Source of the DNA: an uncultured Actinomycetes bacterium
GTDB taxonomy: Bacteria; Chloroflexota; Dormibacteria; Dormibacterales; Dormibacteraceae
Length of the DNA stretch: 64,000 nucleotides
Assembly (NCBI GenBank): GCA_964640005.1
Contig: CAZXGB010000001.1
Location: 103,456-167,455 of the forward strand
Direction: 5' to 3'
Part shown: one piece after another, positions 9,501 through 63,204 of the stretch
Layout of the letters: every line of letters begins with the position of its first letter
Numbering within the stretch: position 1 is the first letter of the stretch
Notes under the pieces: generated by a model
Database searches by the model: none
What the model saw: only the letters and a program-made list of their open reading frames with translations
Told to the model about the DNA's origin: nothing
Position numbers and translations under genes: made by a program

Positions 9501-12500
9501 GTGACGGTCCGTGTGGTCGAGGCCGAGTATCCGCCCGAGTCCGTGACCGTGACGCGGACCGTGAACACGCCGCCTGCCGTGTACGCGTGCGAGGCTGTCG
9601 CGGCGGCCTGGGGACCCACGGCGGCGCTTCCGTCACCGAAGTCGAACTTGTAAGAGGCGACCGGGTTCGTGCCGGCCGACGAAGCCGAGGCATCGGCGGC
9701 GACGGTGAGGGGCGCTCCGCCGGAGCTGGGCGACACGGACAGCGCGGCCGTGGGCGGAGCTGCCGCGCTGACGGTCTTGCCGGCCGTCGCGGTGGCCGAG
9801 GACGTGTCGGCGACGGTCACGGTGACCACGAACGTTCCGGCTGCGCTGTAGACATGGGACGCGGTCGGCGAAGCCTGTGGTCCGACCGCGGCACTTCCGT
9901 CGCCGAAGGAGAACGTGTAGGACGCGATGGGGTTGGAGCCGGGCGTGGAGGCCGACGCGTCGGCGGTGACCTGCAACGGCGTCGCCCCCGAGGAGGGTGA
10001 GACCGAGAGCGTGGCGGTGGGCGGAGCGGTTGCCACCACCGATGTGGAGGCCTTAGAGCTGATTCCCGAGCTGTCCGCGACCGTCACCGTGACGGTGAAG
10101 TTGCCGCCGGCCGTGTACGTGTGAGATGCGGTTGAGGCCGCCTGCGGGCCCACCTTCGTACCGTCACCGAAGTCGAACGTGTAGGACGAGATCGGGTTTG
10201 TTCCGGCCGTCGAGCCAGAGGCGTCCGCGGTGACGGCCAGCGGGGCCGGTCCGCTCGAAGGGCTCACCTTCAGGGAGGCGGCCGGCGGCACCGTGACGGT
10301 GACCGTGGCCGAGGCCGAGGCGGTGGCGCCCGCCGAGTCGGCCGCGCTGACCGTGACGGTGTACGGGCCGCTGATCGTGTACACGTGGGTCGCGGTCGCT
10401 GCGGCCTGCGGACCGACGATCGTGCCGTCGCCGAAATTGAACGTGTACGAGGAGATGCCGATCGGGTCAGTGGACGTCGAAGCGTCTGCCGTCACGTTCA
10501 GAGGAGCGCCGCCGGATGACGGAGTGACGGTGAGCCTCGCGACGGGCGCGCCGACCGACACGGTTCGGGTGGCGCTCGAGGTCGCTCCAGCGCCGTCGGT
10601 GACCGTCACCTTGATCGTGAAGGTGCCTCCGGCCGAGTACACATGGCTTGCCGTCGCCGCCGGCTGCGGTCCTGTGACGGGGCTGCCGTCGCCGAAATCG
10701 AAGGTGTAGCCGGTCACCGGAATGGAGTCGGTCGAGCCGGAAGCGTCGGCCGTCACGGTCAGCGGGGCGGCGCCGCTCGACGGCGAGACGGTCAGCGCCG
10801 CCTGGGGCGCCCCGACCGTCACGGTCGCGGAAGCGCTGGCCGTGGCGCCCGACCCGTCCGTGATCGTGACGACGACCGTGTACGCGCCTCCGGTGGCGTA
10901 GCGATGGGTGGCCGTGGAGCCGGCCTGCGGGCCTACGGCGGCAGTGCCGTCGCCGAAGTTGAACGTGTACCCGGTGATCGGCAGCGCGTCCGTCGAGCCT
11001 GACGCGTTGGCCGTGACGGACAGCGGTGCGGCGCCGGCCGCGGGGCTGACCGTGAGGGCGGCGCTCGGCGAGCCGACCGTGACGGGCTTGCTGGTCGACG
11101 CCGAGTAGCCGGCCGAGTCGGTGACAGTCACCTTCAGGGTGTAGGTACCTCCGGCGGCATAGGAATGAGTGGTGGTGGCGCCGGCCTGCGGGCCGGCTGA
11201 CGTCCCGTCGCCAAATGCGAATGTGTAGCTGCTGATGGGATTCGACCCCGCGGTCGAGGCGGACGCGTCGGCCGTCACCGAGAGAGGCGCCGGTCCGGCG
11301 GCCGGCGTGACCGTCAGCGCGGGGTTCGGCGGCGCCTGCGTCACCACTGTGGCCGTCGCGCTGGAGCTCGCTCCGGCACCGTCCGTCGCGGTCACGGTGA
11401 CGGTGTACGTACCCGCTGTGACGTAGGTGTGAGAAGCGCTGCTGCCGGACTGCGGGCCGACCTTCGCCGACCCGTCGCCGAATGTGAACGAATAACCGGT
11501 GATTCCGATCGGATCGGTCGACTTCGACGCGTCGGCCGTGACGAAGAGTGGCGTCGCGCCGCCGCTGGGAGTGACGGTCAGCGAGGCGACCGGCGCGCCG
11601 ACGGCCACCGGGGCGGTCGCCGTGGAGGTGGCGTTCGCGCTGTCGGCGATGGTCACCTGCACGGTGTAGCTGCCGCCCGCGCTGTAGGTGTGCGTGGCTA
11701 CGGCGCCCGTCTGCGGTCCCACCGTCGTGCCGTCACCGAAGTTGAAGGTGAAGGAGGTGATCCCGATGGGGTCTGTCGAGCTGGACGCATCCGCGGTCAC
11801 GGCCAGCGGGGCCGCGCCGGACGCCGGGGTGACCGTGAGGCCGGCTTTGGGGGCTGCGGTCGGCGCCGCCTTGAACACCGCCACGATGGCGCCGTAGTAC
11901 GTGCTGGCGGTCGACTTCATCGTGATCGTCTGGCCCGCGCTCGACGTCGAGAGCGCGTCTTCGATTCCGTTGGCCTCGACGTAGGCCACGGTCGCCTGCA
12001 CGCGCATCGTGAAACCGGTGCCGGCGGTGAACTGGGTCGCCGATGAGGAAGGCCCCGGATCGCCGCCGATGCCGACCACCAGCTCGCCGGCGCCGCCTAT
12101 AGCGGTGGTTGGGCCGGCGGTCGGAGAGCTCCCGCTGCTGGCCCTGGTGGCGAACTGGTCGACGGCCACGCCTTGCTGCACGCCGCTGTACTCGGCGATG
12201 TCGAACGCGGCCTGGCTGCCGGCGAACGTGACGTAGTCGATCCCGGCGGCCGTCCCGGCGAAGTAGTACAGCTCGACGTGGCCGTTGCCGTACCGCAGCG
12301 ACGTCACCTTCGTCCACGCGCCGTTCAGGGTGTCCGAAACGCCCGTGATCGGATCCGTCCCGCCGTCGTTCGTCGTGATCCCTGCGACGAGCAGGTCACC
12401 CGCGGCGACCGCGGAGGCGAAGGCGAACTTGGTCTTCGTCGTGGAGCCGGTGGACTGCACGAACGAGGGCCCGGCCGACGCGGCGGCGGGAATGTGCTGG

Positions 12501-12655
12501 CCCTGGACCATGAGCGTGCTGAGGAGGACGGCCACGCCGGCAAAGGCGAGGCGTCGAATCCACCTGAACGCCGGCCCCGGGTGCGATATCGCATCCTGCG
12601 GAGCCGAACGCGGCCTGCCTACGGCACGGATCCAGGAGCGGACGTCATCGACCAC
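6503..12655 (-). CDS. Giant secreted surface protein (2050 aa): N-terminal unknown beta domain, 14 tandem PKD domains, then two LamG-like modules each followed by a CarboxypepD_reg-like domain
   Basis: Signal-like [17 protein letters not shown]...AAASA. There are 14 repeats of about 87 aa with the pattern [65 protein letters not shown]. The C-terminal part has two DTFxRxNQSxWGTASxGxxW...[10 protein letters not shown] modules and two ITGTVTD...SGSYT..L..G.YTV units. GTG start at 12655. Confidence 0.9.
8170..11845 (-). repeat. Coding tandem array of 14 PKD-domain repeats (period about 260-270 bp)
   Basis: Boundaries come from residue counting (about residue 271 to 1495). The recurrent DNA motif gtcrccgaagttgaaggtgta is the reverse complement of the YTFNFGDG coding block. 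Confidence 0.85.
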
Positions 12656-12766
12656 GGTCCGAAACAGGGTGGCGCAGAAGCCCGCCGACTTCCATAGGCC
12701 GATACCCCACCGCCCCGGGACAATGTGGAGCCCTGGTCGTTCGGCGACCCAACGGTCCGCAGGGGA

Positions 12767-13465
12767 TCAGGCGTCGGTCAGCCCCATGCGCGCCGCCCAG
12801 AGGACGGCTTCGGTCCTTCCGTGCAGCTCGAGCTTCCGGTAGATCTTCGCCAGATGGTTGCGGACGGTCTTGTGGCTGATGCCTCGGCTCGCCGCGATCG
12901 TCGGTATCGATTGCGCCTGACCGATCATGGCCAGGATCGCGAGCTCGGTGGGGGACAGCTGGCCGGCGTTCGCCGGCACCGCCGCCGGCGAGGCGGCCGG
13001 CCGTTCCAGCAGCTCCAGCAGCACCTCCGCCGCGATTGCCCGGTGGCCCGCCAGGACCGCCTTGACGCCGACCAGGAACGCGTTCAGCGCGGAGCTCTTC
13101 GAGAACGCGCCGGCGGCGTTCAGGCCGACCGCCGACACGAGCTTGCGCTCTTCACCTTCTTCGCCGAGGAGAACGACAGGGACTCGGACCCCCTCCGCTT
13201 GCAGCGTGCGCACGAGGTCCACGCCCGACAGCGGCTCCGCGGAGATCTCGCAGAAAAGGATGTCCAGCGGTCGGGTTCGCACCAGCTCGAGCGCCACGTC
13301 CGAGCGCGTGGCCGAGATGACCTCGGCGCAGATCGGCGGCGCCTCCAGCAGTGAGGCGAGCGCGGCCAGGAAGAGCGGCTGGCGGTCGACGATCAGGGCG
13401 TTGACCGTCGGCGGCGCGTGATCTTCGATCCCCGGACCGGATGTGGACGCAGGAACCACGATCAC
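12767..13465 (-). CDS. Atypical NarL/LuxR-family response regulator (degenerate receiver + LuxR HTH)
   Basis: The C-terminal HTH reads LSPTELAILAMIGQAQSIPTIAASRGISHKTVRNHLAKIYRKLELHGRTEA. The receiver-like N-terminus has DR instead of DD (ALIVDRQ), Glu in place of the phospho-acceptor Asp (LDILFCEIS) and Gly at the Thr/Ser position (VVLLGEE). GTG 13465 is chosen as the start, but the ORF is open to 13639. Confidence 0.8.
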   Translation of the reverse strand: MIVVPASTSGPGIEDHAPPTVNALIVDRQPLFLAALASLLEAPPICAEVISATRSDVALELVRTRPLDILFCEISAEPLSGVDLVRTLQAEGVRVPVVLLGEEGEERKLVSAVGLNAAGAFSKSSALNAFLVGVKAVLAGHRAIAAEVLLELLERPAASPAAVPANAGQLSPTELAILAMIGQAQSIPTIAASRGISHKTVRNHLAKIYRKLELHGRTEAVLWAARMGLTDA

Positions 13466-50383: not shown

Positions 50384-51427
50384 GTGCGTCCGCCTCAGCG
50401 GTCGCCGTCTGCAATCACGGGGTTTTGGGAGTTTGGCTTGGCAGTAGGTGTGGCTCCGGCCGCCCAGCGGGTGGGTGCGCCTCGGGCGATCAGAGTCCGG
50501 AGGGCCTTCTCTGACGTCCTCTACCGTTGGCTGTCATCGGGCGCAGGGCTTCTCACCCTGGTGCTGCTGGTCCTGATCGGGATCTTCCTGGTCCTCCAGA
50601 GCGCGCCCGCTTTCCGGCTCGCCGGCTGGACCTTTCTCACGACGCAGACGTGGTCGCCGGACGGCCTGTCGCACCGCTTCGGCGTTGCGGCGGTCCTCTA
50701 CTGGACGGTGGTGATCGCGGCGATCGCGCTGGTGATCGCCGTCCCGGTGTCCATCACCACGGCGCTCTTCATCAACGAGTACGCGCCGCGCCGGATTCGC
50801 CGGGCGCTCACCGCTCTCGTCGACCTCCTGGCCGCGATCCCGAGCGTGATCTACGGCATATGGGGCCTGGCCTTTCTCGAGCAGTACCTGGTGCTGGTCT
50901 CCTCCTGGCTCGCCGAGAACGCGTCCTTCATCCCGATCTTCAAGACCGACGTCCCGCTGTACGCGGGCTCCGCCTTCATCGCCGGCGTGGTCGTGTCCCT
51001 GATGGTGCAGCCGATCTGCACCTCGGTGATGCGGGAGGTCTTCGCCCAGACGCCGCCCGCCGAGCGCGAGGCGGCGTTCGCGCTGGGCGCAACGAGGTGG
51101 GGCATGATCCGGATGGTCGTCCTGCCGTTCGGCACGGGCGGCATCATCGGCGGCGCGATGCTCGGCCTCGGCCGGGCGCTCGGCGAGACCATCGCCGTGG
51201 CGCTGGTCGTCTCGCCGGTCTTCATCATCTCGCCGCAGATCCTCCAGACCGGGACCAACTCAGTCGCCGCGCTGATCGCTCTCCAGTTCGGCGAGTCGAG
51301 CCGCCAGTACGGCATCCCGGCGCTCATGGCGGCGGGGCTGTCGCTCTTCGTGATGACCCTGCTGGTGAACTTCGCCGCCTCGCTGGTGGTGGCGCGGTCC
51401 CGCTCGGGCAAGGGCGTGGAGATCTGA
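50384..51427 (+). CDS. pstC: Phosphate ABC transporter permease PstC
   Basis: Six TM segments. The EAA-like region [37 protein letters not shown] is typical of PstC. The start is uncertain (GTG 50384, or TTG 50438 lying 6 nt after GGGAG). Confidence 0.9.
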
Positions 51428-52548
51428 TGGCGGCGACGCAGCTGCACGACGAGCCGATCCGCATCCGCACCGTCAAGCCCGACGACCTCCTCGTGGTGGC
51501 CGCGGCTGCGGTCTCCTCAGGCTGCCTCACCTGGCTGGTCTACTGGCAGCTGGCGCCGCAGCCTGGCGTGCTCGGCTTCGTGCTCGCGTGGTTCGCGACG
51601 TTCTCGGTCATGTACTGGCTCGCGACGCGCCGCACCCTTGGCAAGCTGTTCGCGGAGGACAGGCTGACCGCGGTGGTGATCACGGCCGGCGCGGTGGTGA
51701 TGCTCGGTCCGCTGGTCCTGATCATCAGCTTCGTCGCCGTCAAGGGCTTCGCGGTGATCACGCCGCACTTCTTCACCGATACCGCGCAGTTCTGCGGCCA
51801 GCTCGACTCGGCCACGTGCGGCGGCGTCGGGCACGCGATCGTCGGAACCGTGGAGCAGGTCGGGATCGCGGCCGTCATGGCCGTGCCGCTGGCCGTGCTC
51901 TGCGCGGTGTTCCTGAACGAGATCGGCGGCGTGCTGACGCGGCCCGTCCGGCTCTTCGTGGACGCGATGAGCGGCGTCCCGTCGATCGTCGCGGGTCTGT
52001 TCATCTACGCCGTGTGGGTGGTCGCGTTCCAGCGCGGCTTCAGCGGAATCGGCGCCTCCTTCGCCCTGGCCATCCTCATGCTGCCGACGATCACCCGCAC
52101 GACCGAGGTGGTGCTCCGGCTCGTGCCGGACGGGCTTCGCGAGGGCTCGCTGGCGCTGGGCGGCACCGAATGGCGGACCGTGTGGCTGGTGGTCCTGCCC
52201 ACGGCCGGAAGCGGCATCATCACCGCCGTCATCCTCGGCGTGGCCCGCGCCGTGGGCGAGACGGCGCCCCTGCTGCTCACGTCCTTCGGCTCATCCGTCA
52301 TGAACACGAATCCGCTCAGCGGGCCCCAGGAAGCCCTGCCTCACTACGTCTACCAGTACATCAAGTTCAATCCCGGCACCGGCCCGTATCAGCGGGCATG
52401 GGCCGCCGCGGCGGTGCTGACCGCCCTGGTGCTGGCGCTGTTCACGCTGGCGCGTCTTTTCGGAGCCCTGACGTCGATCGAAGCACGCCAGGCGCGCGCC
52501 ATGCGACGTCTCCGCCGGCACGCTCAACCCTTGGAGGCCAAAGCCTGA
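51427..52548 (+). CDS. pstA: Phosphate ABC transporter permease PstA
   Basis: ATG 51427 overlaps the pstC stop by 1 nt. Block [42 protein letters not shown]. Confidence 0.9.
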
Positions 52549-52550
52549 CC

Positions 52551-53402
52551 ATGTCGCAAGCGAACCTCGCCCGCAAGCCCGCGCTGCAGCCCGCTGAGGG
52601 GCAGAAGCAGGTGCCCGAACGGCCGGCGCCCCGCGCCGTGGGCATCGAGGCGGTCGCCGTCGGCGCGTGGTTCGGAGGCCACAAGGTGCTGTCCGGCGTA
52701 ACGCTCGAGATGCGCGCCCGTCAGGTCACCGCCCTGATCGGGCCCTCTGGCTGCGGCAAGTCGACCTTCCTGCGGATCCTGAACCGGATGCACGAGCTCG
52801 TGCCCGGCGCCTCGATGTCGGGCGAGGTGAAGCTGGACGGCGTCGACATCTACGGCCTGGACCGGCGTCCGACCGAGACGCGGCGCCAGATCGGGATGGT
52901 GTTCCAGAAGCCGAACCCGTTTCCCGCGATGAGCATCCGCGACAACGTGCTGTCAGGCCTGCACCTCTCGGGCATGAAGGTCCGGTCCGCGGACGCCCTG
53001 GTGGAGGAGAGCCTGGTCAAGGCCGGCCTCTGGAAGGAGGTGCGCAACCGCCTCGGCGCGCCGGGTGGCAGCCTGTCGGGCGGTCAGCAGCAGCGCCTGT
53101 GCATCGCGCGCGCCCTCGCCGTGAAGCCGCAGGTGCTCCTCATGGACGAGCCGTGCTCGGCGCTGGACCCGGCGTCGACCGGCCGGATCGAAGAGACGAT
53201 CGCCGACATCGTGCACGAGGTGACCGTCGTCATCGTCACCCACAACATGCAGCAGGCGCGTCGCGTCTCCGACACGTGCGCCTTCTTCATGGTCGACGAG
53301 GGCTCGCCCGGCACGGTGGTCGAGGTCGGGCCCACGGAGAAGATCTTCACCAGCCCGGTGGATCCCCGCACCCTGGACTACGTGCAAGGAAGGTTTGGCT
53401 AG
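52551..53402 (+). CDS. pstB: Phosphate ABC transporter ATP-binding protein PstB
   Basis: [48 protein letters not shown], plus the PstB-specific FPMSIRDNV-like block. Confidence 0.95.
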
Positions 53403-54950
53403 TTGAAGCGCTTGATCCGATTGCTGGCGGTGGTGGCCTGCGCGGCCGTCGTCGCGCCCGTTCCGCTCACCGCGCAGGCGATCGGACCGACCATCACCGG
53501 CGCCGGCTCGACCTGGGTTCAGATCGCGCTCGACCAGTGGCGGGCGGACATCGCGCGCCAGGGCTATTCGATCAACTACCAGGGCGTCGGCTCGAGCGCC
53601 GGCCGGACGCTCTACATCATCAACGAGGTCGATTTCGCGGCCAGTGAGATCCCGTTCCAGCCCGATGAGCTCAACCAGCTGAGGGGCTCGGGCAAGCACT
53701 ACCAGTACATGCCCGACGTCGCCGGTGGAACCTCGCTTATGTACAACCTGCACCAGCCGGACGGCAGCCGCATTACCAACCTCAGGCTGAACGCGGATGC
53801 CGCGGCCAAGATCTTCACCGGCGTCATCACTCGGTGGAGCGATCCCGAGATCGCCTCCCTCAACCCCGGCCTTCAGACGCGCGAGTCGCGGATCGAACCC
53901 GTCATCCGTTCCGACGGATCGGGCACGTCCGCCCAGTTCTCGCTGTACCTCGCGAACCAGGCGACCTCGGTCTGGAACGCGTTCGTCAACTCGGCGGGCT
54001 GTCCCGCCCCGTGCTCTCAGTGGCCGCCTTTCACCGGCAGCATCAACGCCGCATATTCCGACGGCGTCGCCAACTTCGTGGCCAACGACAGCATCGGGTC
54101 GGGGTCGATCGGATACGTCGAAGCCGGCTACGCCTTCGGTCGCGGCTTCCCCGTGGCGTCGCTGCACAACGCGAGCGGCAACTTCGCCCAGCCGACGGCG
54201 ACCAACGTGGCCACCGCGCTGCGTCACGCGACGCTCTACTCGGACCTCACGCAGAACCTCACCGGCGTCTACGCGGCTCCCGAAGCGAACGCGTATCCGA
54301 TGTCCAGCTACAGCTACATGATCCTGCCCTGCGTAGCGCCCTCCACCGTGTTCCCGACGTGCTCCCCCACGGCCCCGGCGGGTTTTGGCGCCGACAAGGG
54401 TGCGGTGCTCGGCACGTGGATCCTCTACATCGCGTGCGGCGGTCAGCGGCGGGCGGCGCCGCTGGGCTACTCGCCGCTGCCGCCCAACTTGATCCAGGCC
54501 GACTTCGACGCGGTGAGCCGCCTGCCGGGCCATCCCCCCATACCGCCGCTCGACTACCAGCACTGTCCGAACCCGACCCTGGCGGGCAGCACCGGCGCAA
54601 GCGGGGGCGGCGGGACGGCGGTTTCGGCCGGGTCCACCGCGGGCTCTGCCACCTCCGCGGGATCGACCTCGGCGTCGGCCGGCGGGACGGCAGCGGACGC
54701 CGGAGGGACGCTCGACACCTCCGCCGCCGACCAGGGCGGTTCCGCCGCGGTGCTTCCGCCCGGGACCGCGCGGGTGACCGTGCTCGACTCGGCGGCGCGG
54801 ACGCAGCAGCTGAACAGCGCGCTGGCCTCGGCGGCCCGGGTGCCATCGCCCTCCCGGGCGCCGCTCTGGGGCGCCCTGCTGACGCTTCTCGTCGCCGTCT
54901 TCGCTCCGATGCTCGTGGTCACGGCACGGGGGAGGATGGGCGGTGGGTAG
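53403..54950 (+). CDS. PstS-family (PBP_like_2) substrate-binding protein with Gly/Ser/Ala-rich stalk and C-terminal TM anchor
   Basis: Signal LLAVVACAAVVAPVPLTAQA. Motifs GAGSTWVQIALDQW, YQGVGSSAGR, VDFAASEIPF, SDGSGTSAQF. The C-terminus reads LWGALLTLLVAVFAPMLVVTARGR. TTG start at 53403. Confidence 0.75.
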   Translation: MKRLIRLLAVVACAAVVAPVPLTAQAIGPTITGAGSTWVQIALDQWRADIARQGYSINYQGVGSSAGRTLYIINEVDFAASEIPFQPDELNQLRGSGKHYQYMPDVAGGTSLMYNLHQPDGSRITNLRLNADAAAKIFTGVITRWSDPEIASLNPGLQTRESRIEPVIRSDGSGTSAQFSLYLANQATSVWNAFVNSAGCPAPCSQWPPFTGSINAAYSDGVANFVANDSIGSGSIGYVEAGYAFGRGFPVASLHNASGNFAQPTATNVATALRHATLYSDLTQNLTGVYAAPEANAYPMSSYSYMILPCVAPSTVFPTCSPTAPAGFGADKGAVLGTWILYIACGGQRRAAPLGYSPLPPNLIQADFDAVSRLPGHPPIPPLDYQHCPNPTLAGSTGASGGGGTAVSAGSTAGSATSAGSTSASAGGTAADAGGTLDTSAADQGGSAAVLPPGTARVTVLDSAARTQQLNSALASAARVPSPSRAPLWGALLTLLVAVFAPMLVVTARGRMGGG

Positions 54951-56949
54951 GCCCAAGGCCTTTCGGCTGCGCCACCTGGCCATGGCCGCCGGCGCGGTTA
55001 CGATCGGGCTCGAGTTCGCCCTCGGCGCGATGACGGTCGGGGCCGTCGCGTCGCCGAGCCCGACGGCCGGCGCCAGCCCGACGGCGAGCGTCAGCCCGAC
55101 GGCGAGCGCCAGCCCCACGGCCAGCCCGAGCCCCAGCGCCAGCCCGAGTTCCAGCCCGAGCCCCAGCCCGACGCCGGTGGCCGGCATCTCGGTGCAGCCG
55201 GCGGCGGGCCTGTCCGACGGCCAGTACGTGAGGGTGTCGCTTCAGAACCTCGCGCCCGGTGAGGCGGTCTTCTTCCGCCAGTGCATCGCCATCCCCGTCC
55301 ACCTGACGACCGACTGCACACGCATCAACACGCAGATCTATGCCCGCGCCGACGCGCAGGGCGGCGGCAGCACCTACCTTCCGATCGCCGCGTACGGCAG
55401 CGATCTTTTGACCAACGCCGCGCTGACGGGCAAGATCCAGTGCGACAAGGACCACGACTGCTCGATCCTGGGGACGAGCACCCTCCGCCACACCTACAGC
55501 GCGCTCCTCAGCTTCGCGCCCTCGCCCGATGCCTGCCCGACCCAGCCGGCGGACACGCCGCTCGGCAGCGGCAGCGCCGCGGCCGCCCGGGCGATCTACC
55601 GCTGGGAGGCCTCGGTATGCGTGCCTCCCCGGTCGCTGCCGATCGGCTACACGCCGCACAACGACCAGGACGCGTACAAGGATCTCGACGCCGGATCCAC
55701 CCAGTTCGGCGTCGCTTCGATCGTCCCGCCGCCGCCTGGGTCGGGCGCGGCGGCCAGCCCCTCACCCCAGGCGGGCGCGGCGACCTACCGGCTCGCGCCG
55801 CTCACCGCGTCCGCCGTGGTCCTGGCCTACCGGGCCTACGACCTCCGGGGCAACCAGATCACCACCCTCACGCTCACCCCTGACCTCATCGCCCAGCTCT
55901 ACATGGGCAACATCAACAATTTCGGCGCCACGCCGGCCATCACCGCGCTAAATCCCGGGATCCTGTTTCCGCCCCGGGTCTCGGTGGTGGCTCGGGCCGA
56001 GCACAACACGGAGACGTACCTGTTCACGTCCTGGCTCGCGACCGTCGCGCCCGGCTCATGGAAGCCGCCCAAGTCGCCGGCGCCGGACATCTTTCCCTCG
56101 TCCCCGGGCCTGGACCTGAAGTTCGGCGAGTCCGCCGCCGCCCTCGAGATCGTCAACCCGCCCTCCACGGGGTTCGATTCGTTCGTCCTGCACATCGGAG
56201 TCATCGATTCCAGCACCGCTGCCTTCTACGGGCTGCCCACCGTGAAGATCGCGTACCCGGACGGCACGTCGGTGTCCGCGACCCAGGACACGATCCTCGA
56301 AGGGATCGCCGACTCGCAGGTGGCGCCGGACGGAACGCTGATCCCACGCTGGGGCGACACCGCCGACCCGGACGGGTGGTACCAGCGGGGCGGCGCGGCC
56401 TACCCGATGCCGCTGCTCACGTACATGGTCACGCCGACAAACAAGATCGACCCCGCCCAGGGCGATATCCTCGCCAAGTTCCTGAGGTTCGCGGTGCAGG
56501 ACGGCCAGACGCTCCTCACCGCGGAGGACGGCTATGTCCGGCTGCCGCAGAACCTGGTGAAGGCTAGCCTGGCGATCGCCGACCTCATCCCGGTGCCCGC
56601 GCCTCCGCCGGTCCCAAGCCCGACCCCGCCGCCTCCTCCACCCCCGCCGACCTTGCCGCCGCTGCCTCCCGTCAGCTCGGGCGGGGGCGGCACGGTGGGA
56701 GGCGGGACGGGAGGAGGCGCCACGTCCGGGGGAATCCAGTCGCACCACGCCACGCCCGCCCGCACCGCGCTGGCCACTCTGACCTCGAGCCAGGGCCTCG
56801 AGCTCGCGGGGGCGGTCCAGGGCGAGCTCGGGTTCCTGCCCGAGGACTACGCGCTGCCGGGGCTCGTGGGGCTGGTGGTGCTGCTGGTCGCCGGAGGCCT
56901 CGGCCTCAGGCTGTGGGCCCTGCGCGCGGCGGCGAGGCGCGGCGCGTGA
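54943..56949 (+). CDS. Surface-anchored protein: Ser/Pro/Thr linker, neocarzinostatin-like Ig domain, divergent PBP_like_2 domain, Pro- and Gly-rich stalk, C-terminal TM anchor with basic tail
   Basis: ISVQPAAGLSDGQYVRVSLQNLAPGEAVFFRQC (NCS-like). LGSGSAAAARAIYRWE and later blocks resemble PstS-like binding proteins. PPPPPPPPTLPPLPP and GGGGTVGGGTGGG stretches. Tail LPEDYALPGLVGLVVLLVAGGLGLRLWALRAAARRGA. Confidence 0.7.
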   Translation: MGRPKAFRLRHLAMAAGAVTIGLEFALGAMTVGAVASPSPTAGASPTASVSPTASASPTASPSPSASPSSSPSPSPTPVAGISVQPAAGLSDGQYVRVSLQNLAPGEAVFFRQCIAIPVHLTTDCTRINTQIYARADAQGGGSTYLPIAAYGSDLLTNAALTGKIQCDKDHDCSILGTSTLRHTYSALLSFAPSPDACPTQPADTPLGSGSAAAARAIYRWEASVCVPPRSLPIGYTPHNDQDAYKDLDAGSTQFGVASIVPPPPGSGAAASPSPQAGAATYRLAPLTASAVVLAYRAYDLRGNQITTLTLTPDLIAQLYMGNINNFGATPAITALNPGILFPPRVSVVARAEHNTETYLFTSWLATVAPGSWKPPKSPAPDIFPSSPGLDLKFGESAAALEIVNPPSTGFDSFVLHIGVIDSSTAAFYGLPTVKIAYPDGTSVSATQDTILEGIADSQVAPDGTLIPRWGDTADPDGWYQRGGAAYPMPLLTYMVTPTNKIDPAQGDILAKFLRFAVQDGQTLLTAEDGYVRLPQNLVKASLAIADLIPVPAPPPVPSPTPPPPPPPPTLPPLPPVSSGGGGTVGGGTGGGATSGGIQSHHATPARTALATLTSSQGLELAGAVQGELGFLPEDYALPGLVGLVVLLVAGGLGLRLWALRAAARRGA

Positions 56950-57776
56950 GCCCCCGCTTGCTGGGGATGGCCGGGGCGGCGCTCGGCGGGGCCGGGGTGC
57001 TGGTCCTGTTCGCGCTCGTGTTCGAGTTCGGCCTCAGCACGCTGACCGCGCAGCAGTCCCAGGACGGCCTGCTGCCCACCTTCAAGGCGGCGTCCCAGAC
57101 GACCGTGCTGGACGAGCCGAGCGTCAACGCGCCCCAGGGCAGCCCGGTGGCCCTCCTGCGCGTCCCTCGGCTCGGGCTCGACGAGGTGGTGGTCGAAGGT
57201 TCGAGCCCGGAAGAGCTCAAGGCCGGCCCCGGCCACCTGAGCGTGTCCCCGATGCCCGGCGAGTTCGGCAACGCCGTCGTGCTGGGCCGGCGCACCACCT
57301 ATGGCGGGCCCTTCCACGACCTGAACCACCTGCGCAGGGGCGACACCATCTCCGTGACGACCGGCCAGGGCACGTTCAGCTACGTCGTGACGCAGGTCGG
57401 TCGAGTGCCGGCGGGTGACGGCGGGCCGCTGCAGGGTACCCTGGACAGCCGCCTGACGCTGGTCACCTCCGACCCGACGTACCTGTTCACCGGCCGCCTC
57501 GTGGTGATCGCGATGCTGCAGGGACAGCCGCTGGCGGTGAGCACGCGCAACCCGCCCCGGGTCACCGCGTACGACCTCGGTCTGGCGACCGATCCGCTGT
57601 GGCTGGCGCCGGCCGCGCTGCTCGCGCAGCTCCTGGTGTTGACGATCTGGGTCGCCTTCCGCATGCGGCGGCGGTGGCCGGCCTCGATGACCTACATGTT
57701 CGCCGGACCGGTGATCGTCGCCCTGACGATCCTCACCGTGACCACGCTCGATCGCGGATTGCCTGGAACCTTATGA
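56946..57776 (+). CDS. Class E sortase homologue with substituted catalytic His and Cys (pseudo-sortase)
   Basis: GTG 56946 overlaps the upstream stop (GTGA). There is an N-terminal TM segment. The sortase core is LLRVPRLGLDEVVVEG..GPGH..PGEFGNAVVLGRRTTYGGPF..LRRGD..LTLVTSDP..GRLVV. The GHR His is Arg (cgg 57288-57290) and the TLxTC Cys is Ser (tcc 57468-57470). Confidence 0.8.
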   Translation: MSPRLLGMAGAALGGAGVLVLFALVFEFGLSTLTAQQSQDGLLPTFKAASQTTVLDEPSVNAPQGSPVALLRVPRLGLDEVVVEGSSPEELKAGPGHLSVSPMPGEFGNAVVLGRRTTYGGPFHDLNHLRRGDTISVTTGQGTFSYVVTQVGRVPAGDGGPLQGTLDSRLTLVTSDPTYLFTGRLVVIAMLQGQPLAVSTRNPPRVTAYDLGLATDPLWLAPAALLAQLLVLTIWVAFRMRRRWPASMTYMFAGPVIVALTILTVTTLDRGLPGTL

Positions 57777-57796: not shown

Positions 57797-58231
57797 ATGA
57801 AGGGCCGCATGCTCTTGCTGTTGATGGCGCTGCCGTCGGCGCTGATGCTGGCCGCGTGCGACAGCGGCGGCACGGTGGCGTTGACCACCCCGAAGTCGTC
57901 GCCGGTGCCCGTCGCCACGGTTCCGGACCCGGCCATCAAGGAGGCGGTCAGCGCCGCGCCGTCCTATGACGTCGGCCACACCGTTCACATCACCAAGGAT
58001 GGCATTCGGCCGAGGTCGTTGGCGAGCCTGTGCTGTGCGCCCGTGGTGTTCGTCAACGAGACCGCCCAGCCGCTGGCGGTCCAGTTCTTCACGTACAAGA
58101 TCGCGTCCGGCCCGATCGCCCCCGGGAGCAGGTGGCAGTGGGTTCCACCCAACCCCGAGAGCGTCGGCTATCACCTCGTGAGCGATCCGACCGCCACCGG
58201 GCAGATCCAGGTCGAGTCGCCGGACTGGTAG
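57797..58231 (+). CDS. Small lipoprotein (cupredoxin-like size, unknown function)
   Basis: ATG 57797 follows GGGAGGAAG (57782-57790). Lipobox ALMLAAC. ATG 57773 is an alternative start overlapping the sortase stop. Confidence 0.6.
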   Translation: MKGRMLLLLMALPSALMLAACDSGGTVALTTPKSSPVPVATVPDPAIKEAVSAAPSYDVGHTVHITKDGIRPRSLASLCCAPVVFVNETAQPLAVQFFTYKIASGPIAPGSRWQWVPPNPESVGYHLVSDPTATGQIQVESPDW

Positions 58232-58281
58232 CCCCGATCCTCGACGAGGCGCCGGCACCCACGGCCACCACGCAGCGGCCG

Positions 58282-59070
58282 GTGCGCAGGCGGATCGCCA
58301 TCGTGGGGAACTCGCACGTCCTGGCCCTGTTCCAGGGCTTCGAGGAGATCCATGCTGCGCTGCCCGAGAACGTGGAGTTGACGTTCATCGCCCGCGGCCG
58401 CTACAAGATCGGATACGCGGCCGGCTCCGCTGCGGGCTACACGGTGAGCTCCCCGGCGGGGACTCTCGCCGACCTCATGGCCGGCGCCAATCCCACCCAC
58501 GTCTTCGTCGTATGGCAGGGCAACCAGGTGAACGTCCGGGCCCTGCTCCTGCTGGACGGCCCTCCGTTCGACGTCGTCCTCCCGGAGGACGGCGAGCGCG
58601 CGCTCGATCCCGACGTCCAGCTGATCCCGACCTCCGCCGTGCGGGCCCACGTGCGGGCCTCGCTGGAGGATGCGGAGCTGACCGAGCTGCTGGTCCGGGC
58701 GGCGGGGCTGGGCGCCAGGGCGTGGCTGATCGGACCTCCGCCGCCGCTGCCCGAGGCCGCGGTCAGGGAGCGCCTCAACCAGGAGGCGCACTTCGCCGAC
58801 CGGCTCGTGGCCACCGGGCTCGATGCCGCCGGCGTGGCGATCGTGCCCGAGGCCGTGCGGGTGCGGCTGCGCGCGCTCCTGCTCGAGGCCTACCGAGACT
58901 TCGCCGTCGAGCGGGGCGTGGGGTTCTGTCCGCCGCCCGCCTCCGTGGCGGACGAGGCGGGGCTGCTGCTGCGGCGCTGCTGGGGCCGAGACATCACCCA
59001 CGGCAACGGCGCTTACGGCGCCGCCTACCTGGAGCGCATCGTCGCGACCGCGCTGGCGCCCGATGCCTGA
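58282..59070 (+). CDS. SGNH/GDSL-like hydrolase-fold protein
   Basis: GTG 58282 gives an N-terminus RRRIAIVGNSH (block I GxSx). VVWQGNQ is block III-like and GRDITHGN is a block V DxxH. The ORF-track extension to 58030 overlaps the preceding gene. Confidence 0.55.
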   Translation: MRRRIAIVGNSHVLALFQGFEEIHAALPENVELTFIARGRYKIGYAAGSAAGYTVSSPAGTLADLMAGANPTHVFVVWQGNQVNVRALLLLDGPPFDVVLPEDGERALDPDVQLIPTSAVRAHVRASLEDAELTELLVRAAGLGARAWLIGPPPPLPEAAVRERLNQEAHFADRLVATGLDAAGVAIVPEAVRVRLRALLLEAYRDFAVERGVGFCPPPASVADEAGLLLRRCWGRDITHGNGAYGAAYLERIVATALAPDA

Positions 59071-60124
59071 GCACCCCTACCGCCGGGCCGGCGACCGGGC
59101 CTTCTGGTCGAGGTCTGTGGCCGCCGGCTATCGCCCCATCACCGTCCCTGACCCGCCCCCGTTCCGGCTGAGCCGCGACGACCGGTTCATGTCCGCGGGC
59201 TCCTGCTTCGCGGCGAACGTCCGCCGCCACCTCGAGGGATGGGGCTTCGACTACACCGTGACCGAGCGGGCGCATCCCCAGTGGCCCGACGAGCGGGAAT
59301 CGATGTTCTACGAGGCGTACAGCGCGCGCTACGGCAACGTGTACACGGCCCGGCAGATGGTGCAGCTCCTGCTGCGGGCGGTGGGCGAGTTCTCTCCTCG
59401 AGAGGACCACTGGGCGGCGGCGGACGGCAGCTTCGTCGACCCGTACCGCCCTGGCCTGACCCATCGCGCGGCCTCGCTAACGGAGCTCCGCGCGCTGACG
59501 CTGCAGCACCTGCGGGCCGTGAGGCGTGCGGTCGAGGCGTCGACCGTCCTGGTCTTCACGCTCGGGCTGACCGAGGCCTGGGAATCGGCGGACGACGGCG
59601 CCGTGTTCCCGGCCTGCCCCGGAACCGTCGCGGGCGAGTTCGACCCGGACCGGCACCGCTTCGTGAACTTCTCCTACGAGGACGTTTCGGCCGATCTCGA
59701 CGCCATGCTGAGCCTCCTGCGCGCCCTCAACCCCGGCCTTCGCGTCGTCCTGACCGTGTCACCGGTCCCGCTCGTGGCGACCGCCTCAGGACGGCACGTG
59801 CTTACGGCCACCACGTACAGCAAGTCGGTGCTCAGGATTGCCGCGGAAGACGTCGCCAGGCGCCGCACCAGCGTGGCGTACTTCCCCGCCTATGAGATGG
59901 TGCTGGGCCCCCAGCACGAGCAGTCGCCGTTCGACGCGGACCTGCGGACGGTGCGTGAGCCCGTCGTGGCGGCGGTGATGGAGGCGTTCCGCGCCGTATA
60001 CATCGAGCAGCCGGTCGAGCTGCCGGCCACGTCGCCCCCCCGCACACCGGCCGTTCCAGGCCGTGCGCACCTGGTGGCGGAGGCGACCGAGGACGAATGC
60101 GAGGAGATGTTCGCCGAGTCTTGA
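59063..60124 (+). CDS. GSCFA-family protein
   Basis: The name-giving motif FMSAGSCFAANV is near the N-terminus. TLGLTEAW and LTVSPVPL blocks follow. ATG 59063 overlaps the upstream gene by 8 nt. Confidence 0.75.
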   Translation: MPEHPYRRAGDRAFWSRSVAAGYRPITVPDPPPFRLSRDDRFMSAGSCFAANVRRHLEGWGFDYTVTERAHPQWPDERESMFYEAYSARYGNVYTARQMVQLLLRAVGEFSPREDHWAAADGSFVDPYRPGLTHRAASLTELRALTLQHLRAVRRAVEASTVLVFTLGLTEAWESADDGAVFPACPGTVAGEFDPDRHRFVNFSYEDVSADLDAMLSLLRALNPGLRVVLTVSPVPLVATASGRHVLTATTYSKSVLRIAAEDVARRRTSVAYFPAYEMVLGPQHEQSPFDADLRTVREPVVAAVMEAFRAVYIEQPVELPATSPPRTPAVPGRAHLVAEATEDECEEMFAES

Positions 60125-60128
60125 GCCG

Positions 60129-60827
60129 CTAGGGCGAGTGATCGAACGGCGCGGCGTTGTCCCCGAGCTCGGTCGTCCCGAGCACGGTGTTGTCCACCAC
60201 GCGCTTGGGTGAGCTGCCGGTGTTGCCGGTCACGACCAGCCAGCCGCCGACCTGGTTGCCCGACACGTCGAGCTCGCTCGCCGTGACGTTGTCTTGGGCC
60301 ACGAGGTCGCGCCTGACCCTGTTGCCGAGACAACCCGCCGCGGGGTCACCGAGCAGCACGTCCGGCCCCGAGCGGCGCACCTCGATCCCGCCGGCCGTCG
60401 TGTCACAGACCTGAACATGGCCGTAGCCCGGCGCGCGGGAGTCGGCGACCCGCACGGTTCCGCCCACCGCCGTCTTGTACAGAAAGAGCTGGGCGGCTCC
60501 GTCGACCTCGACCGATCCCGCCACGTCCGTCCCATCGTGCAGGAAGACGGTGAGGGCGCCCGAGGCCCTGATCGAGCCTGTGACCTTCGTCGCCGACGCC
60601 TCGAAGTACGCATCGCGCAGCACGGTGACGGATCCCTTGAGGGTCGAGCCGCTGACGCGGCAGACCGCGCCGACCGGCACGGTCACGTCCGCCGTGGCCA
60701 TATTGATCAGCGTTCCGCTGCAGATGGTGCTCGTGTCCCGCTTGGCCAGCACCTGGGGGGCGACGGTCAAAAGCGCGACCAGCGCCGCGTAGAACACGAC
60801 CGGAACGACCAGTGCCCGCCGCCTCAT
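60129..60827 (-). CDS. Secreted beta-helix-like repeat protein (paralogue 1)
   Basis: Signal ALVVPVVFYAALVALLTVAPQVLA. It has degenerate ~20-aa V/G-rich repeats. The core SRAPGYGHVQVCDTTAGG...GPDVLLGDPAAGCLGN is shared with 62416-63204. Confidence 0.65.
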   Translation of the reverse strand: MRRRALVVPVVFYAALVALLTVAPQVLAKRDTSTICSGTLINMATADVTVPVGAVCRVSGSTLKGSVTVLRDAYFEASATKVTGSIRASGALTVFLHDGTDVAGSVEVDGAAQLFLYKTAVGGTVRVADSRAPGYGHVQVCDTTAGGIEVRRSGPDVLLGDPAAGCLGNRVRRDLVAQDNVTASELDVSGNQVGGWLVVTGNTGSSPKRVVDNTVLGTTELGDNAAPFDHSP

Positions 60828-61024
60828 CTCCGGTCGACTCTACTGGCCCAGAAACGACCGGTCAATTCGGATTCGGGGCCTGCACCAAGATGTCATGAAG
60901 AGTTCGAAATCCGTTCAATCGGCCGCCGCTTCGCCGCCGAACTGCCCACTCATGATGGCGACACCGGATGTCCTGGGTCTGCCGCGAGGCGACCCGCGGG
61001 GTTATTCAGTTGAGGAGGCAGTTA

Positions 61025-62332
61025 ATGCGGATGACAGGGAACTGGCGTAAGTTGCTGGCCATCGGGGGCGGCGCCGCGTCGGCGGCGGCACTGATGGTGG
61101 GCGCAACGCTCGTCTATGCGGGGCCCAACGGCACAGGTGGCGGGCCCACCGCCGAGAAGATCCTCGGCAGCGGTTCGGACACCGACCAGATCGCGATGAT
61201 GCACCTGGACGGGCTCTACATGGTCTCCGAGGGCTGCGCGAAGTTCACGAGCACCTCGAAGCCGCTCGACTTCAGCTGTATAGCGCCGGACCCGGCCGGC
61301 ACCATCACCACCGAGAACTACGAGCACGACCAACTGTCGGAGGCCGACTTCCTCGGCTCCTCGATCGGTATCAAGCAGCTCTGCACGCAGGGCGTCGCCG
61401 GCACCGCCTACATCGACTTCGCCCGTTCCTCGCGCGCCCCGAAGGCCGGTGACTGCACGGGTCTCCACTTCGTCGCGTACGCGCGCGACGGGATCTCGCT
61501 CGAGGCCCACTCGGACGGGACCGTGAACAGCGGCATCTTCAACATGGCCAACACCGACCCGCTCTGCACGGGCCTCGGCTACTGCCTGACGCAGACCCAG
61601 GTCAAGGGCATCTACGCGAACTGCACGATCACCAACTGGAGCCAGGTCGGCGGCCAGAACCTGACCATCCAGATCTACACGCCGCAGTCCGGTTCGGGCA
61701 CTCGCGCACAATTCGAGACGTTCCTGGGCATCGCCGACTCGTCGGTCTGCATCACCGCGGACGGACAGCCCTCCTCGCACTTCAACGTTCCCGAGAACCA
61801 GAACACCGGCATCGCGTCCACCGACACCAACACGTTCATCTTCCCGTTCTCGTACGCGATCTTCCACACGGAGGTCGGGACCGGCGGCGGTTACTCGCTC
61901 GCCGCGATCGACGGAGTCGCGCCGAGCTCCTCGACGATCGGCTGCATCACCGGTGTGGGCTGCACGATCTTCCCCTACAGCCGTTACATCTACAACGTGG
62001 TGTGCACCGCGGTCACCGCGCCTCCGGCCGCGCCGGCCTGCGGCAACGCTCCGGGCCACCTCGTCACCACCAAGACCGCCGACTACGTCGGTGAGGAGGG
62101 CTGGATCTGCAAGCCCGGCGCCAACGAGAACGCGGCCTGGGTCGGCAACCAGAACGTGCCGGCGCTGGACACTCGATCCCAGTCGCCGCACAGCACGAGC
62201 CCGCACTACGGCGCCAACTGGGCGACGCTCATCTCGAAGAAGATCACGGCCCGCGGATTCGCGCCGCTGGCGATCGACATCATAGGCGGCGGCAACACCA
62301 ACAGCGACCACTGCCGCCTGACCACGACCTAG
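61025..62332 (+). CDS. Secreted Cys-rich PstS-like (PBP_like_2) domain protein
   Basis: ATG 61025 lies 6 nt after GGAGG (61014-61018). Signal LLAIGGGAASAAALMVGATLVYA. Motifs ILGSGSDT, DFARSSR, QSGSGTRAQFETFLG. There are many paired Cys residues. Confidence 0.7.
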   Translation: MRMTGNWRKLLAIGGGAASAAALMVGATLVYAGPNGTGGGPTAEKILGSGSDTDQIAMMHLDGLYMVSEGCAKFTSTSKPLDFSCIAPDPAGTITTENYEHDQLSEADFLGSSIGIKQLCTQGVAGTAYIDFARSSRAPKAGDCTGLHFVAYARDGISLEAHSDGTVNSGIFNMANTDPLCTGLGYCLTQTQVKGIYANCTITNWSQVGGQNLTIQIYTPQSGSGTRAQFETFLGIADSSVCITADGQPSSHFNVPENQNTGIASTDTNTFIFPFSYAIFHTEVGTGGGYSLAAIDGVAPSSSTIGCITGVGCTIFPYSRYIYNVVCTAVTAPPAAPACGNAPGHLVTTKTADYVGEEGWICKPGANENAAWVGNQNVPALDTRSQSPHSTSPHYGANWATLISKKITARGFAPLAIDIIGGGNTNSDHCRLTTT

Positions 62333-62381: not shown

Positions 62382-62415
62382 TTCCAGAAAAAAGATGCGG
62401 AAGGAGATGAGGTCA

Positions 62416-63204
62416 ATGCGAGGTAGGTTCCTGGTCGGGCTGGCCGTGGTGGTCACGGCCCTCGGCCTCAGCGCGGTCCCGGCCGGGGCGAACAGCTCCG
62501 GCGGAGGCGGCACGTTCCACTGCGACCAGACGGTCAACGGCGGCACCATCAGCCAGAACATCACGGTGCCGAACAACGCGACGTGCATCCTGAACAACGT
62601 GACCGTCACCGGAAACGTGAACGCCAACACCAACTCTTACTTCGAAGCCAATGGGTCCACGATCCACGGCAACATCAACGGATACCAGTCCCTGACCCTG
62701 TACGTCTGGGGCAACTCCGTGGTCGACGGCACGGTCTCGGGCAGCTACACGCCGCAGGTGTTCGTCTACGACAGCACCGTCGGCAAGAACATCGGAGCGT
62801 TCAACGCTTCCGCCCCGGGATACGGCCACTTCCAGGTCTGCGGCACCACCGTGGGCAGGGAGATCGGCGCCGCCTTCATGGGCCCGGACATCCTGATCGG
62901 CGACCCGGCCGCGGGATGCGCCGGCAACACCACGCAGACCAACGACATCCTGGTGGCCTACAACAAGGCTGACAGCGAGGTCCATGTCATCGGCAACACC
63001 GCTGTCGCGGGCGACATCAACATCTACAACAACACCGGCGTGGGCGACTTCCAGATTCACGCCAACAACGCTCCGTACGGCGACATCTTCTGCAGCGGCA
63101 ACACCGGCTCGACGTTCAGCGGCACCGGCAACGGTACGGTGGGCGACGCGGCCGGCGGCCAGTGCACGGCCACGAAGATCACCGGGATGGACGCGGACGA
63201 GTAG
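62416..63204 (+). CDS. Secreted beta-helix-like repeat protein (paralogue 2)
   Basis: ATG 62416 lies 9 nt after AAGGAG (62401-62406); ATG 62395 and 62407 are in frame. Signal FLVGLAVVVTALGLSAVPAGA. It shares the core ASAPGYGHFQVCGTTVG...GPDILIGDPAAGCAGN. Confidence 0.65.
   Translation: MRGRFLVGLAVVVTALGLSAVPAGANSSGGGGTFHCDQTVNGGTISQNITVPNNATCILNNVTVTGNVNANTNSYFEANGSTIHGNINGYQSLTLYVWGNSVVDGTVSGSYTPQVFVYDSTVGKNIGAFNASAPGYGHFQVCGTTVGREIGAAFMGPDILIGDPAAGCAGNTTQTNDILVAYNKADSEVHVIGNTAVAGDINIYNNTGVGDFQIHANNAPYGDIFCSGNTGSTFSGTGNGTVGDAAGGQCTATKITGMDADE

Follow-up and report, generated by a model that had tools for sequence, protein, structure and literature searches.

Sortases are defined by a His-Cys-Arg triad, in which the catalytic His protonates the leaving group. 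Some of them are dedicated to substrates from their own operon, as is the case for class B SrtB and IsdC, the class C pilus sortases and their pilins, and class D SrtD and spore proteins. Here we describe a sortase homologue encoded by the open reading frame (ORF) at 56946..57776 on the forward strand of a 64,000-nucleotide stretch of DNA from an uncultured member of the Dormibacteraceae (contig CAZXGB010000001.1). We refer to this whole stretch as the window; the ORF is part of a phosphate-uptake (pst) operon. With the class E sortases S. coelicolor SrtE1 (PDB 5cuw), S. avermitilis SrtE (5go5/5go6), C. diphtheriae SrtF (5uus) and T. fusca SrtE the 276-aa protein has in common the fold, the N-terminal transmembrane (TM) anchor, the GxGH, PGxxGN, xRxTYG and TLxTx motifs and the conserved Arg. 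It differs from them in that the catalytic Cys is replaced by Ser, the His by Arg and the Tyr of the class E S3 subsite by Leu, in that no LAxTG substrate is encoded beside the gene, and in that two extra TM helices and an LPxT tail follow the sortase domain (LPxN/S in active relatives from the Acidimicrobiia). We know of no description of such C-terminal helices and tail for the class E enzymes studied so far. The closest active relatives are Acidimicrobiia sortases with the pattern GHY...GHR...TLTTC...R. By fold and ancestry the protein is a class E relative, yet it has neither the Cys, the His nor the S3 Tyr of that class, and its score of 89.3 bits against the class_E_sortase model NF033747, the best among the NCBIfam models, lies well under the cutoff of 160. 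Based on the evidence below we consider it likely that it is a pseudo-sortase, i.e. a protein with three TM helices and a class-E-type fold and peptide groove which would be incapable of thioester transpeptidation.

The assignment to the sortase superfamily (MEROPS C60 fold) is clear. The Pfam family Sortase (PF04203) matched residues 71-191 with E=4.1e-22 and 78.7 bits (cutoff 26.6), covering profile positions 1-124 of 125, and the best sequence match was class E, with E=1e-17 for S. avermitilis SrtE (5go6). An AlphaFold2 (AF2) model built on 120 homologues reached a mean predicted local distance difference test score (pLDDT) of 89.7 and a predicted template modelling score (pTM) of 0.84. In the model a helix at the N-terminus is followed by a beta-barrel and a pair of C-terminal helices. 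When we compared the model to the PDB with Foldseek, sortases accounted for 50 of the top 50 listed matches, including the class E structures 5go5 and 5go6, with target-normalised template modelling scores of up to 0.78, and the barrel is the eight-stranded one of the sortase fold. The N-terminal helix spans residues 3-50 with a hydrophobic core and corresponds to the class E membrane anchor. The sortase fold occupies residues ~65-195 and is followed by TM helices at 217-240 and 246-271 and by the tail LPGTL-COOH. The loop between the second and third TM helix reads RMRRRW, so that according to the positive-inside rule both the sortase domain and the tail are predicted to be extracytoplasmic. 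No other sortase homologue was found within the 64-kb window. The start codon is a GTG at 56946 that shares the four bases GTGA with the TGA of the upstream gene at 54943-56949. A GAGG lies 8 nt 5' of this start, and an in-frame GTG at 56913 is the other possible start. The gene calls at the homologous loci L003, L085, L087 and L088 use the same 4-base overlap, and those at L001 and L002 an overlap of 1 base.

We used the phmmer alignment to 5go6 to locate the catalytic positions. Arg115 (codon cgg, 57288..57290) aligns with the His of the GHR motif, which in active sortases (GHR/GHT) follows strand beta4, and Ser175 (tcc, 57468-57470) with the Cys of TLxTC, so that Val173-Thr174-Ser175 (gtc acc tcc, 57462..57470) gives TLVTS in place of TLTTC. 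The conserved sortase Arg is retained as Arg184 (cgc, 57495..57497). The window protein does not contain a single Cys, and therefore no other alignment can supply the nucleophile; its only His residues are 97, 124 and 128. His97 cannot be regarded as a new catalytic residue because it is equally conserved in the active relatives. The initial annotation of this ORF, made from the letters of the sequence, had described a protein that resembles class E sortases along its whole core, with the His of GHR and the Cys of TLxTC replaced at exactly these codons, the Arg kept and the GTG start overlapping the preceding stop codon. All of this was confirmed on the DNA and in the alignments. It had further called for an alignment with PF04203 and class E structures; in our alignments the substituted residues stay at the catalytic positions.

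Both substitutions are found across an entire clade. Among the 120 closest homologues, which are the best matches in a collection of 5.8 billion proteins, the Cys position is occupied by Ser in 113, by Ala in five and by Thr in one, and never by Cys. The His position shows Arg in 104 and His in 16 of these sequences, and the position of Arg184 is Arg in 110 and Glu or Gln in nine. We then took the best 150 sequences of an exhaustive profile search over 1.84 billion 50%-identity representatives: 136 of them are Cys-less (S105, A24, G4, T3), and the first Cys-containing sequence appears at rank 100. The conserved Arg was lost at the loci L011, L031 and L066, all of which still adjoin PstS-like or pst genes. 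The hosts are mostly uncultured Acidimicrobiales/Acidimicrobiia, other Actinomycetota and Dormibacterota from soil. Most of the clade sequences are metagenomic, and the counts given here are numbers of sequences rather than of independent events. A neighbour-joining (NJ) tree, the only type of tree that we computed, was built from the sortase domain after removal of the three catalytic columns. In it all Cys-less sequences formed a single clade nested among canonical GHR...TLTTC...R sortases of the Acidimicrobiia.

To judge whether these genes are under constraint we compared pairwise dN/dS values. The Cys-less sortase gene showed values of 0.17-0.35, which are similar to those that the neighbouring genes show when the same pairs of genomes are compared (pstC 0.15, pstB 0.19, PstS1 0.34 and PstS2 0.24-0.40). 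The gene is thus held by purifying selection. If the gene were an artefact of sequencing or assembly, or a normal class E sortase gene decaying into a pseudogene, only the two substituted codons themselves would speak for it. The same substitutions are shared by hundreds of independent assemblies of several origins, the frame is open throughout, and synteny and translational coupling are conserved (see below). We regard such an origin as practically inconceivable, and the clade-wide substitutions together with the dN/dS values refute it. Homology to an enzyme family, clade-wide loss of catalytic residues, purifying selection and a conserved gene context are the features by which a pseudoenzyme is recognised, and the sequences of this clade point to one in all four respects.

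A few members of the clade deserve a separate mention. The cultured actinomycete Actinomadura roseirufa LMG 30035 encodes a Cys-less member that looks intermediate (L021, 163-981, on a contig of 2 kb): it retains GHY, GHR and the Arg, has Thr in place of the Cys (LTLLTTAP) and ends in the tail LIPSTF. Many Cys-less members have a helical cytoplasmic N-terminal extension of 100-200 aa, which the window protein does not have. In P0222, P0239, P0244 and P0246 the first TM helix is separated from the sortase-like domain by a PASTA domain, which binds peptidoglycan or muropeptides; the contig of the P0239 locus (L089) is too short for gene context. We also came across P0176, a 980-aa protein that combines neocarzinostatin, PBP and sortase domains. 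We rejected it as a Rosetta-stone gene fusion, since its locus, L090, belongs to an assembly with other split genes and the junction does not include the TM helix of PstS2, so that a frameshift is more likely.

The gene context of the Cys-less sortase homologue is highly conserved. The full order pstC-pstA-pstB-PstS1-PstS2-sortase homologue-lipoprotein was observed in the window, at L001-L003, L008, L014, L085, L086 and L088 and at the P0019 locus, and L004-L007 show as much of this seven-gene order as their contigs contain. PstS1 is divergent at L087 and L090, and at L090 the permease genes are divergent too. At the more distant L009, L010, L011, L031, L053 and L066, pst or PstS-like genes are adjacent but differently arranged. 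Neighbours of the pst or PstS-like kind were present wherever a Cys-less locus had flanking sequence, and the synteny spans Acidimicrobiia, other Actinomycetota and Dormibacterota. The lipoprotein gene starts 20 bp after the sortase homologue in the window, and its start overlaps the stop of the latter in L003, L008, L087, L088 and L090. As the sortase homologue also overlaps PstS2 at most loci, it is translationally coupled there to the genes on either side. Two of the loci carry further pst genes: pstSCAB-phoU-type genes are complete in L087 (12537-19173) and partly seen in L090 (1-7678), and Pho-type two-component genes lie near the sortase-linked pst operon in both. There, the sortase-linked system is consequently an additional Pst system.

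We then compared the C-termini of the PstS-like partners between loci with and without the catalytic Cys. Four members of the same subfamily, at L032, L037, L091 and L092, have retained His, Cys and Arg and are located directly 3' of PstS-like genes. At L032, L037 and L092 we found pstC-pstA-pstB, two PBP_like_2 proteins and the sortase; the contig of L091 begins inside a PstS-like gene and contains one such protein. The PBP_like_2 proteins of these four loci end in LGRTG, LAFTG, LGHTG, LALTG, LAFTG, LARTG and LATTG, followed in each case by a hydrophobic helix and RRR. Judged by their sequence, these L[AG]xTG motifs are class-E-type sorting signals, which adds L032, L037 and L092, and L091 to the extent that its contig allows, to the operon-dedicated sortase/substrate pairs, here with PstS-like substrates. 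To our knowledge no sortase-anchored phosphate-binding protein has been described.

The Cys-less loci present a different picture. The window encodes two PstS-like proteins upstream of the sortase homologue, PstS1 (53403..54950) and PstS2 (54943..56949), both on the forward strand. No LxxTG was found in the PstS1 and PstS2 orthologues of the window and of ten further Cys-less loci or in 43 database homologues of PstS2, 40 of which have a complete C-terminus, and none of the ORFs in the 64-kb window contains an LAxTG/LxxTG sorting signal. The TM helix and the basic tail were kept in all partners of the Cys-less clade with a complete C-terminus, which means that these proteins are membrane-anchored by their C-termini. 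Unlike SrtB/IsdC and similar pairs, the clade of the window thus has neither the nucleophile nor the cleavage motif. Since the partners of the Cys-type sortases carry LxxTG and those of the Cys-less homologues do not, enzyme chemistry and substrate signal have degenerated together while the gene linkage persisted. The initial annotation had already noted that the two upstream proteins are PstS-like and end in a hydrophobic segment plus a basic tail lacking L[PA]xTG, and had proposed a degenerate sortase/substrate pair, to be checked for the same substitutions and neighbours in related genomes. The first part holds given the PBP_like_2 and TIGR00975 matches and the C-termini, both substitutions and neighbours recur according to the homologue counts and the pst synteny, and the proposal as a whole gains support from the class-E-type signals that are restricted to the Cys-type loci.

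At the start of the TM helix the PstS2 orthologues have a conserved [YF][VIL][LV]P[SAG] (ALPG/VLPS-type in PstS2), and the PstS1 orthologues show P-L at the helix start and a Pro near the cytoplasmic end of the helix. Two observations concern the Cys-type loci alone. At L092 the pst-linked sortase is followed (9501-12917) by an Exosortase_EpsH-family gene and by proteins with PEP-CTERM-like signals, i.e. VPEAG or VPETS and then a helix and RRR; a neocarzinostatin-domain protein with LPFTG is encoded there too, so that two different C-terminal sorting systems occur side by side. At L032 (10546-11703) and L037 (10573-11259) the gene after the sortase has an end which by eye resembles an NlpC/P60 wall hydrolase; in the Cys-less loci this slot is filled by the lipoprotein.

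The changes are not confined to the catalytic residues. We compared the alignment columns of 134 Cys-less sequences with those of 67 Cys-type relatives and identified nine columns that are conserved within each group but differ between the groups. Going from Cys-type to Cys-less, five of them are Y to L98, A to V111, H to R115, T to V173 and C to S175; the remaining four are Q to E27, L to F28, I to L71 and Q to E106. Common to both groups are GPGH, PGxxGN, RTTYGxPF, GD, TLxT, P177 and R184. Position 98 (Leu98, ctg, 57237..57239 in the window) is located in the beta3/beta4 loop after the beta3 His, where class E sortases have a Tyr. It is Leu in 85% and Tyr in 1% of the Cys-less clade, compared with Tyr in 90% of the Cys-type relatives, which turns GHY into GHL. 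In SrtE1 this is Tyr229 of the GHY motif, the residue proposed to make Ala the preferred and Pro a disfavoured residue at P3 of LAxTG (PMC5148588). Val173 aligns with T196 of S. avermitilis SrtE, and 5go6 is the structure of the T196V mutant; a role for T196 is suggested by the existence of this structure. With positions 98 and 173, which lie at or next to the class E substrate site, this region has changed in a co-ordinated manner.

A further difference between the groups was detected at the very C-terminus. The two extra TM helices and a five-residue tail of the form xP-x-x-hydrophobic-COOH are common to the Cys-less sequences and the active Acidimicrobiia relatives. In the window the tail is Leu-Pro-Gly-Thr-Leu (57759..57773, forward strand) with the stop codon directly after it. 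The fourth tail residue is Thr (LPGTL, LPATL, LPSTL) in 203 of 254 Cys-less sequences (80%) and in none of the 80 Cys-type sequences, where Asn (44) and Ser (15) were observed. Active members end in LLPAN[YFIL] or LLPS[NS]F and Cys-less members in LLP[GAS]T[LM] (Cys-type loci L012-L084 and P0001-P0297). We had considered LPGTL as a clade-specific mimic of LPXTG and rejected this idea, as the active relatives end in LLPANF and only the Thr is specific to the clade. The co-variation could mean that the tail reaches into the active site, LPxT being tolerated only where it would be uncleavable; the tail of this Acidimicrobiia-type subfamily may be a built-in pseudo-substrate or lid.

The same co-variation can be turned into an argument for a different function. 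Arg115, Arg116, Arg184, Ser175 and Thr174 might form an anion pocket for phosphate, for a phosphorylated wall component or for the carboxylate of the protein's own tail, in which case the protein would be a sensor, a regulator or a self-capped structural subunit of the Pst system and would not hold PstS tails. The substitution of His by Arg places a second guanidinium beside the retained Arg and a hydroxyl, and a contact between tail and site is suggested by the tail Thr tracking the state of the active site. The operon encodes an importer of phosphate, ppk, ppx, CHAD, PhoU and two-component genes lie close to related loci, and a peptidoglycan-binding PASTA domain is present in some clade members. 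The argument for the pocket is compositional only, however, and self-capping has to be reconciled with a pLDDT of only ~63 for the tail. Furthermore, the presumed pocket is not constant, with the His kept in 16 of 120 sequences and Arg184 exchanged for Glu or Gln in nine. We judge this function to be improbable.

A second possibility is that Ser175 took over as the nucleophile. The protein would then be a Ser-dependent peptidase or transpeptidase using Arg115/Arg184 or His97 that has turned to another recognition motif, located either in the PstS-like proteins or in its own C-terminal tail. In favour of this, Ser is isosteric with Cys and was kept in 113 of the 120 close homologues, Thr174 and Arg184 are kept too, His and Ser occur together in 16 of the 120 members, the partners have conserved juxtamembrane motifs and the tail is LPxT. 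The partners do not contain a conserved Thr-Gly-like scissile pair, though, and the Ser itself has given way to Ala or Gly in 28 of the 136 representative clusters (21%), in proteins that are otherwise unchanged, tail included. The Ala-type L066 is still pst-linked, which together with the missing scissile-type motif disfavours a Ser enzyme. The His, the proton donor to the leaving group in sortases, is Arg in 87% of the members. We see a Ser-based enzyme as unlikely, and a non-catalytic partner is favoured over it by the sequences because Ala or Gly occurs at the nucleophile position, the His is mostly Arg and the Arg was lost in some lineages.

We propose the following scenario for the non-catalytic partner. 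The ancestor would have been an active, operon-dedicated class E sortase that attached two PstS-like proteins to the wall via L[AG]xTG, a state which would still be found in some Acidimicrobiia. In one lineage the nucleophile Cys would have changed to Ser, and in some lines later to Ala or Gly, and the His mostly to Arg; the Tyr of the S3 subsite and the Thr that precedes the Cys by two positions would have been altered as well. In parallel both PstS-like partners would have lost the cleavage motif and retained the TM helix and the basic tail. The pseudo-sortase would now be a non-covalent partner, with a short juxtamembrane stretch that contains Leu-Pro bound by its groove and/or its TM helices. 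This stretch may be the hydrophobic-LP motif where the TM helix of PstS2 begins, the P-L motif of PstS1 or the LPxT tail of the pseudo-sortase itself. The effect would be to hold the anchored binding proteins at the PstCA permease or to organise them there, and the lipoprotein or PstCA itself may also be among the partners of the pseudo-sortase. An origin by decay of a pst-dedicated class E sortase, with the product now serving as a non-covalent partner of PstS, seems to us the probable explanation. We infer the lack of catalysis, the binding role and the identity of the ligand from the sequence and its conservation.

A more far-reaching version can be formulated, which we put forward tentatively and hold to be possible rather than probable. 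According to this version the whole Cys-less clade (at least 136 50%-identity clusters) would have been converted to obligatory non-catalytic subunits of Pst importers. The Arg-Ser-Arg site and the retuned groove would clamp an LP peptide, either the protein's own LPxT-COOH tail or the juxtamembrane LP of PstS or both, and would thereby assemble the PstS proteins at the permease or retain them there.

Several observations weigh against the proposed decay into a binding partner. The pst-linked Cys-type sortases of L032 and L037 are not the immediate sister of the Cys-less clade in the NJ tree, so that it is shared synteny, rather than a resolved tree, that supports the ancestral state. Ser175 is nearly invariant within the subclade of the window (113 of 120), with Thr174 and Arg184 conserved as well, which argues for a residual role of the hydroxyl, chemical or in ligand binding. 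The modest confidence of the AF2 model in the tail applies to its proposed visit to the groove as well. Finally, a Pro that simply caps the TM helix could account for the hydrophobic-LP motif found there.

Membrane-embedded peptidase folds that have lost their catalytic residues and are conserved together with membrane-anchored clients are known from other families. The pseudoproteases iRhom and Derlin of the rhomboid superfamily are examples. The likeness is one of analogy only: fold and lineage are unrelated, and binding of clients by the sortase relic is so far only proposed. In its probable function the pseudo-sortase would resemble these client-binding pseudoproteases.

The rest of the operon (all genes on the forward strand, closely spaced or overlapping in the window) compares to the known PstSCAB importer as follows. 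The first gene is pstC (50384..51427; TIGR02138, 270 bits, cutoff 196), the stop of which overlaps the start of the second permease gene pstA (51424..52548; TIGR00974, 250.7 bits, cutoff 193). Both products pass the NCBIfam equivalog cutoffs. The ATPase gene pstB (52551..53402) follows with 322.8 bits for TIGR00972, just below the cutoff of 343, and PstS1 matches PBP_like_2 with E=3e-31 and TIGR00975 with 175 bits, slightly below the equivalog cutoff; PstB and PstS1 are clear homologues. In the alignment to 8ods, PstS1 retains the GAGS, GSS, VDF and RSDGSGT motifs of solved PstS proteins. We take these motifs to be the phosphate site, as in the E. coli PstS structures. Homologues of PstC, PstA and PstB therefore adjoin a PstS1 with phosphate-binding motifs, as in a PstSCAB operon. 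PstS1 begins with a signal peptide and the binding domain, from which a linker of low complexity leads to the C-terminal TM helix and a short basic tail; it ends in ...SRAPLWGALLTLLVAVFAPMLVVTARGRMGGG. PstS2 combines a neocarzinostatin-like domain (PF00960, E=3e-7) with a divergent PstS-like domain (TIGR00975, 77 bits), followed by a Pro-rich linker, the TM helix and the basic tail. It still matched PstS structures in the PDB (E=4e-10), with the anion-binding loop RADGSGT changed to RAEHNTE, and its ligand may be one other than orthophosphate. The N-lobe motifs of PstS2 do not align with PstS. The operon differs from PstSCAB in the gene order (CAB-S-S, not SCAB), in the anchoring of the binding proteins by a C-terminal TM helix instead of an N-terminal lipid, in the second, divergent PstS that is fused to a neocarzinostatin-like domain, and in two extra conserved genes for the pseudo-sortase and the lipoprotein.

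The lipoprotein (57797..58231, forward strand) is small and has the lipobox LAAC and a cupredoxin-like domain. Its profile matched the cupredoxin domain of the nitrite reductase 9cck with E=1.5e-7, and amicyanins with ~0.02. We found 18 invariant columns across eight aligned orthologues, five of which contain an adjacent Cys-Cys pair (LCCAP, DCCHA). By eye, the Cys/Met copper ligands appear to be absent from the usual ligand positions of cupredoxins. A BLAST comparison returned no match for the lipoprotein in the Cys-type loci L032 and L037. After the lipoprotein, the window contains at 58258-60124 a GSCFA-family ORF (E=3e-51) and a weakly SGNH-like ORF, probably a local insertion as they are absent at that position in L085. 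The third PstS-family protein, PBP3 (60968..62332, forward strand; PBP_like_2, E=6e-15), has no C-terminal anchor and is also encoded near the operon in L001, L003, L008, L014, L085, L086 and L090. Its gene is flanked by those of two paralogous secreted proteins that are 34% identical (60129-60827, reverse strand, and 62395-63204, forward strand). They are rich in Gly, Asn, Thr and Val by eye and had no match in Pfam or NCBIfam; L085 has genes of like size and strand at the corresponding places.

In the literature we found no description of Cys-less sortases, of sortase-anchored PstS or of Pst accessory subunits of this kind. In the databases the Cys-less proteins are named "sortase A" or "class E sortase". 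These names ignore the lost chemistry, and surface-proteome predictions for these phyla are consequently wrong at the Cys-less locus. Should the far-reaching version with obligatory Pst subunits hold, it would make the protein the first pseudo-sortase with a function, and Pst systems would have their first accessory subunit dedicated to substrate-binding proteins. The subfamily would offer a traceable path from active PstS-dedicated sortases to a derived state in which enzyme and signal decayed jointly while the gene remained under selection, and with it a natural experiment on what the sortase fold can do without catalysis. The co-variation of the tail (LPxT versus LPxN) with the active site suggests a previously unnoticed pseudo-substrate tail in a sortase subfamily. 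For the abundant and mostly uncultured soil bacteria that carry these loci, the findings point to an unrecognised organisation of phosphate-binding proteins on the cell envelope.

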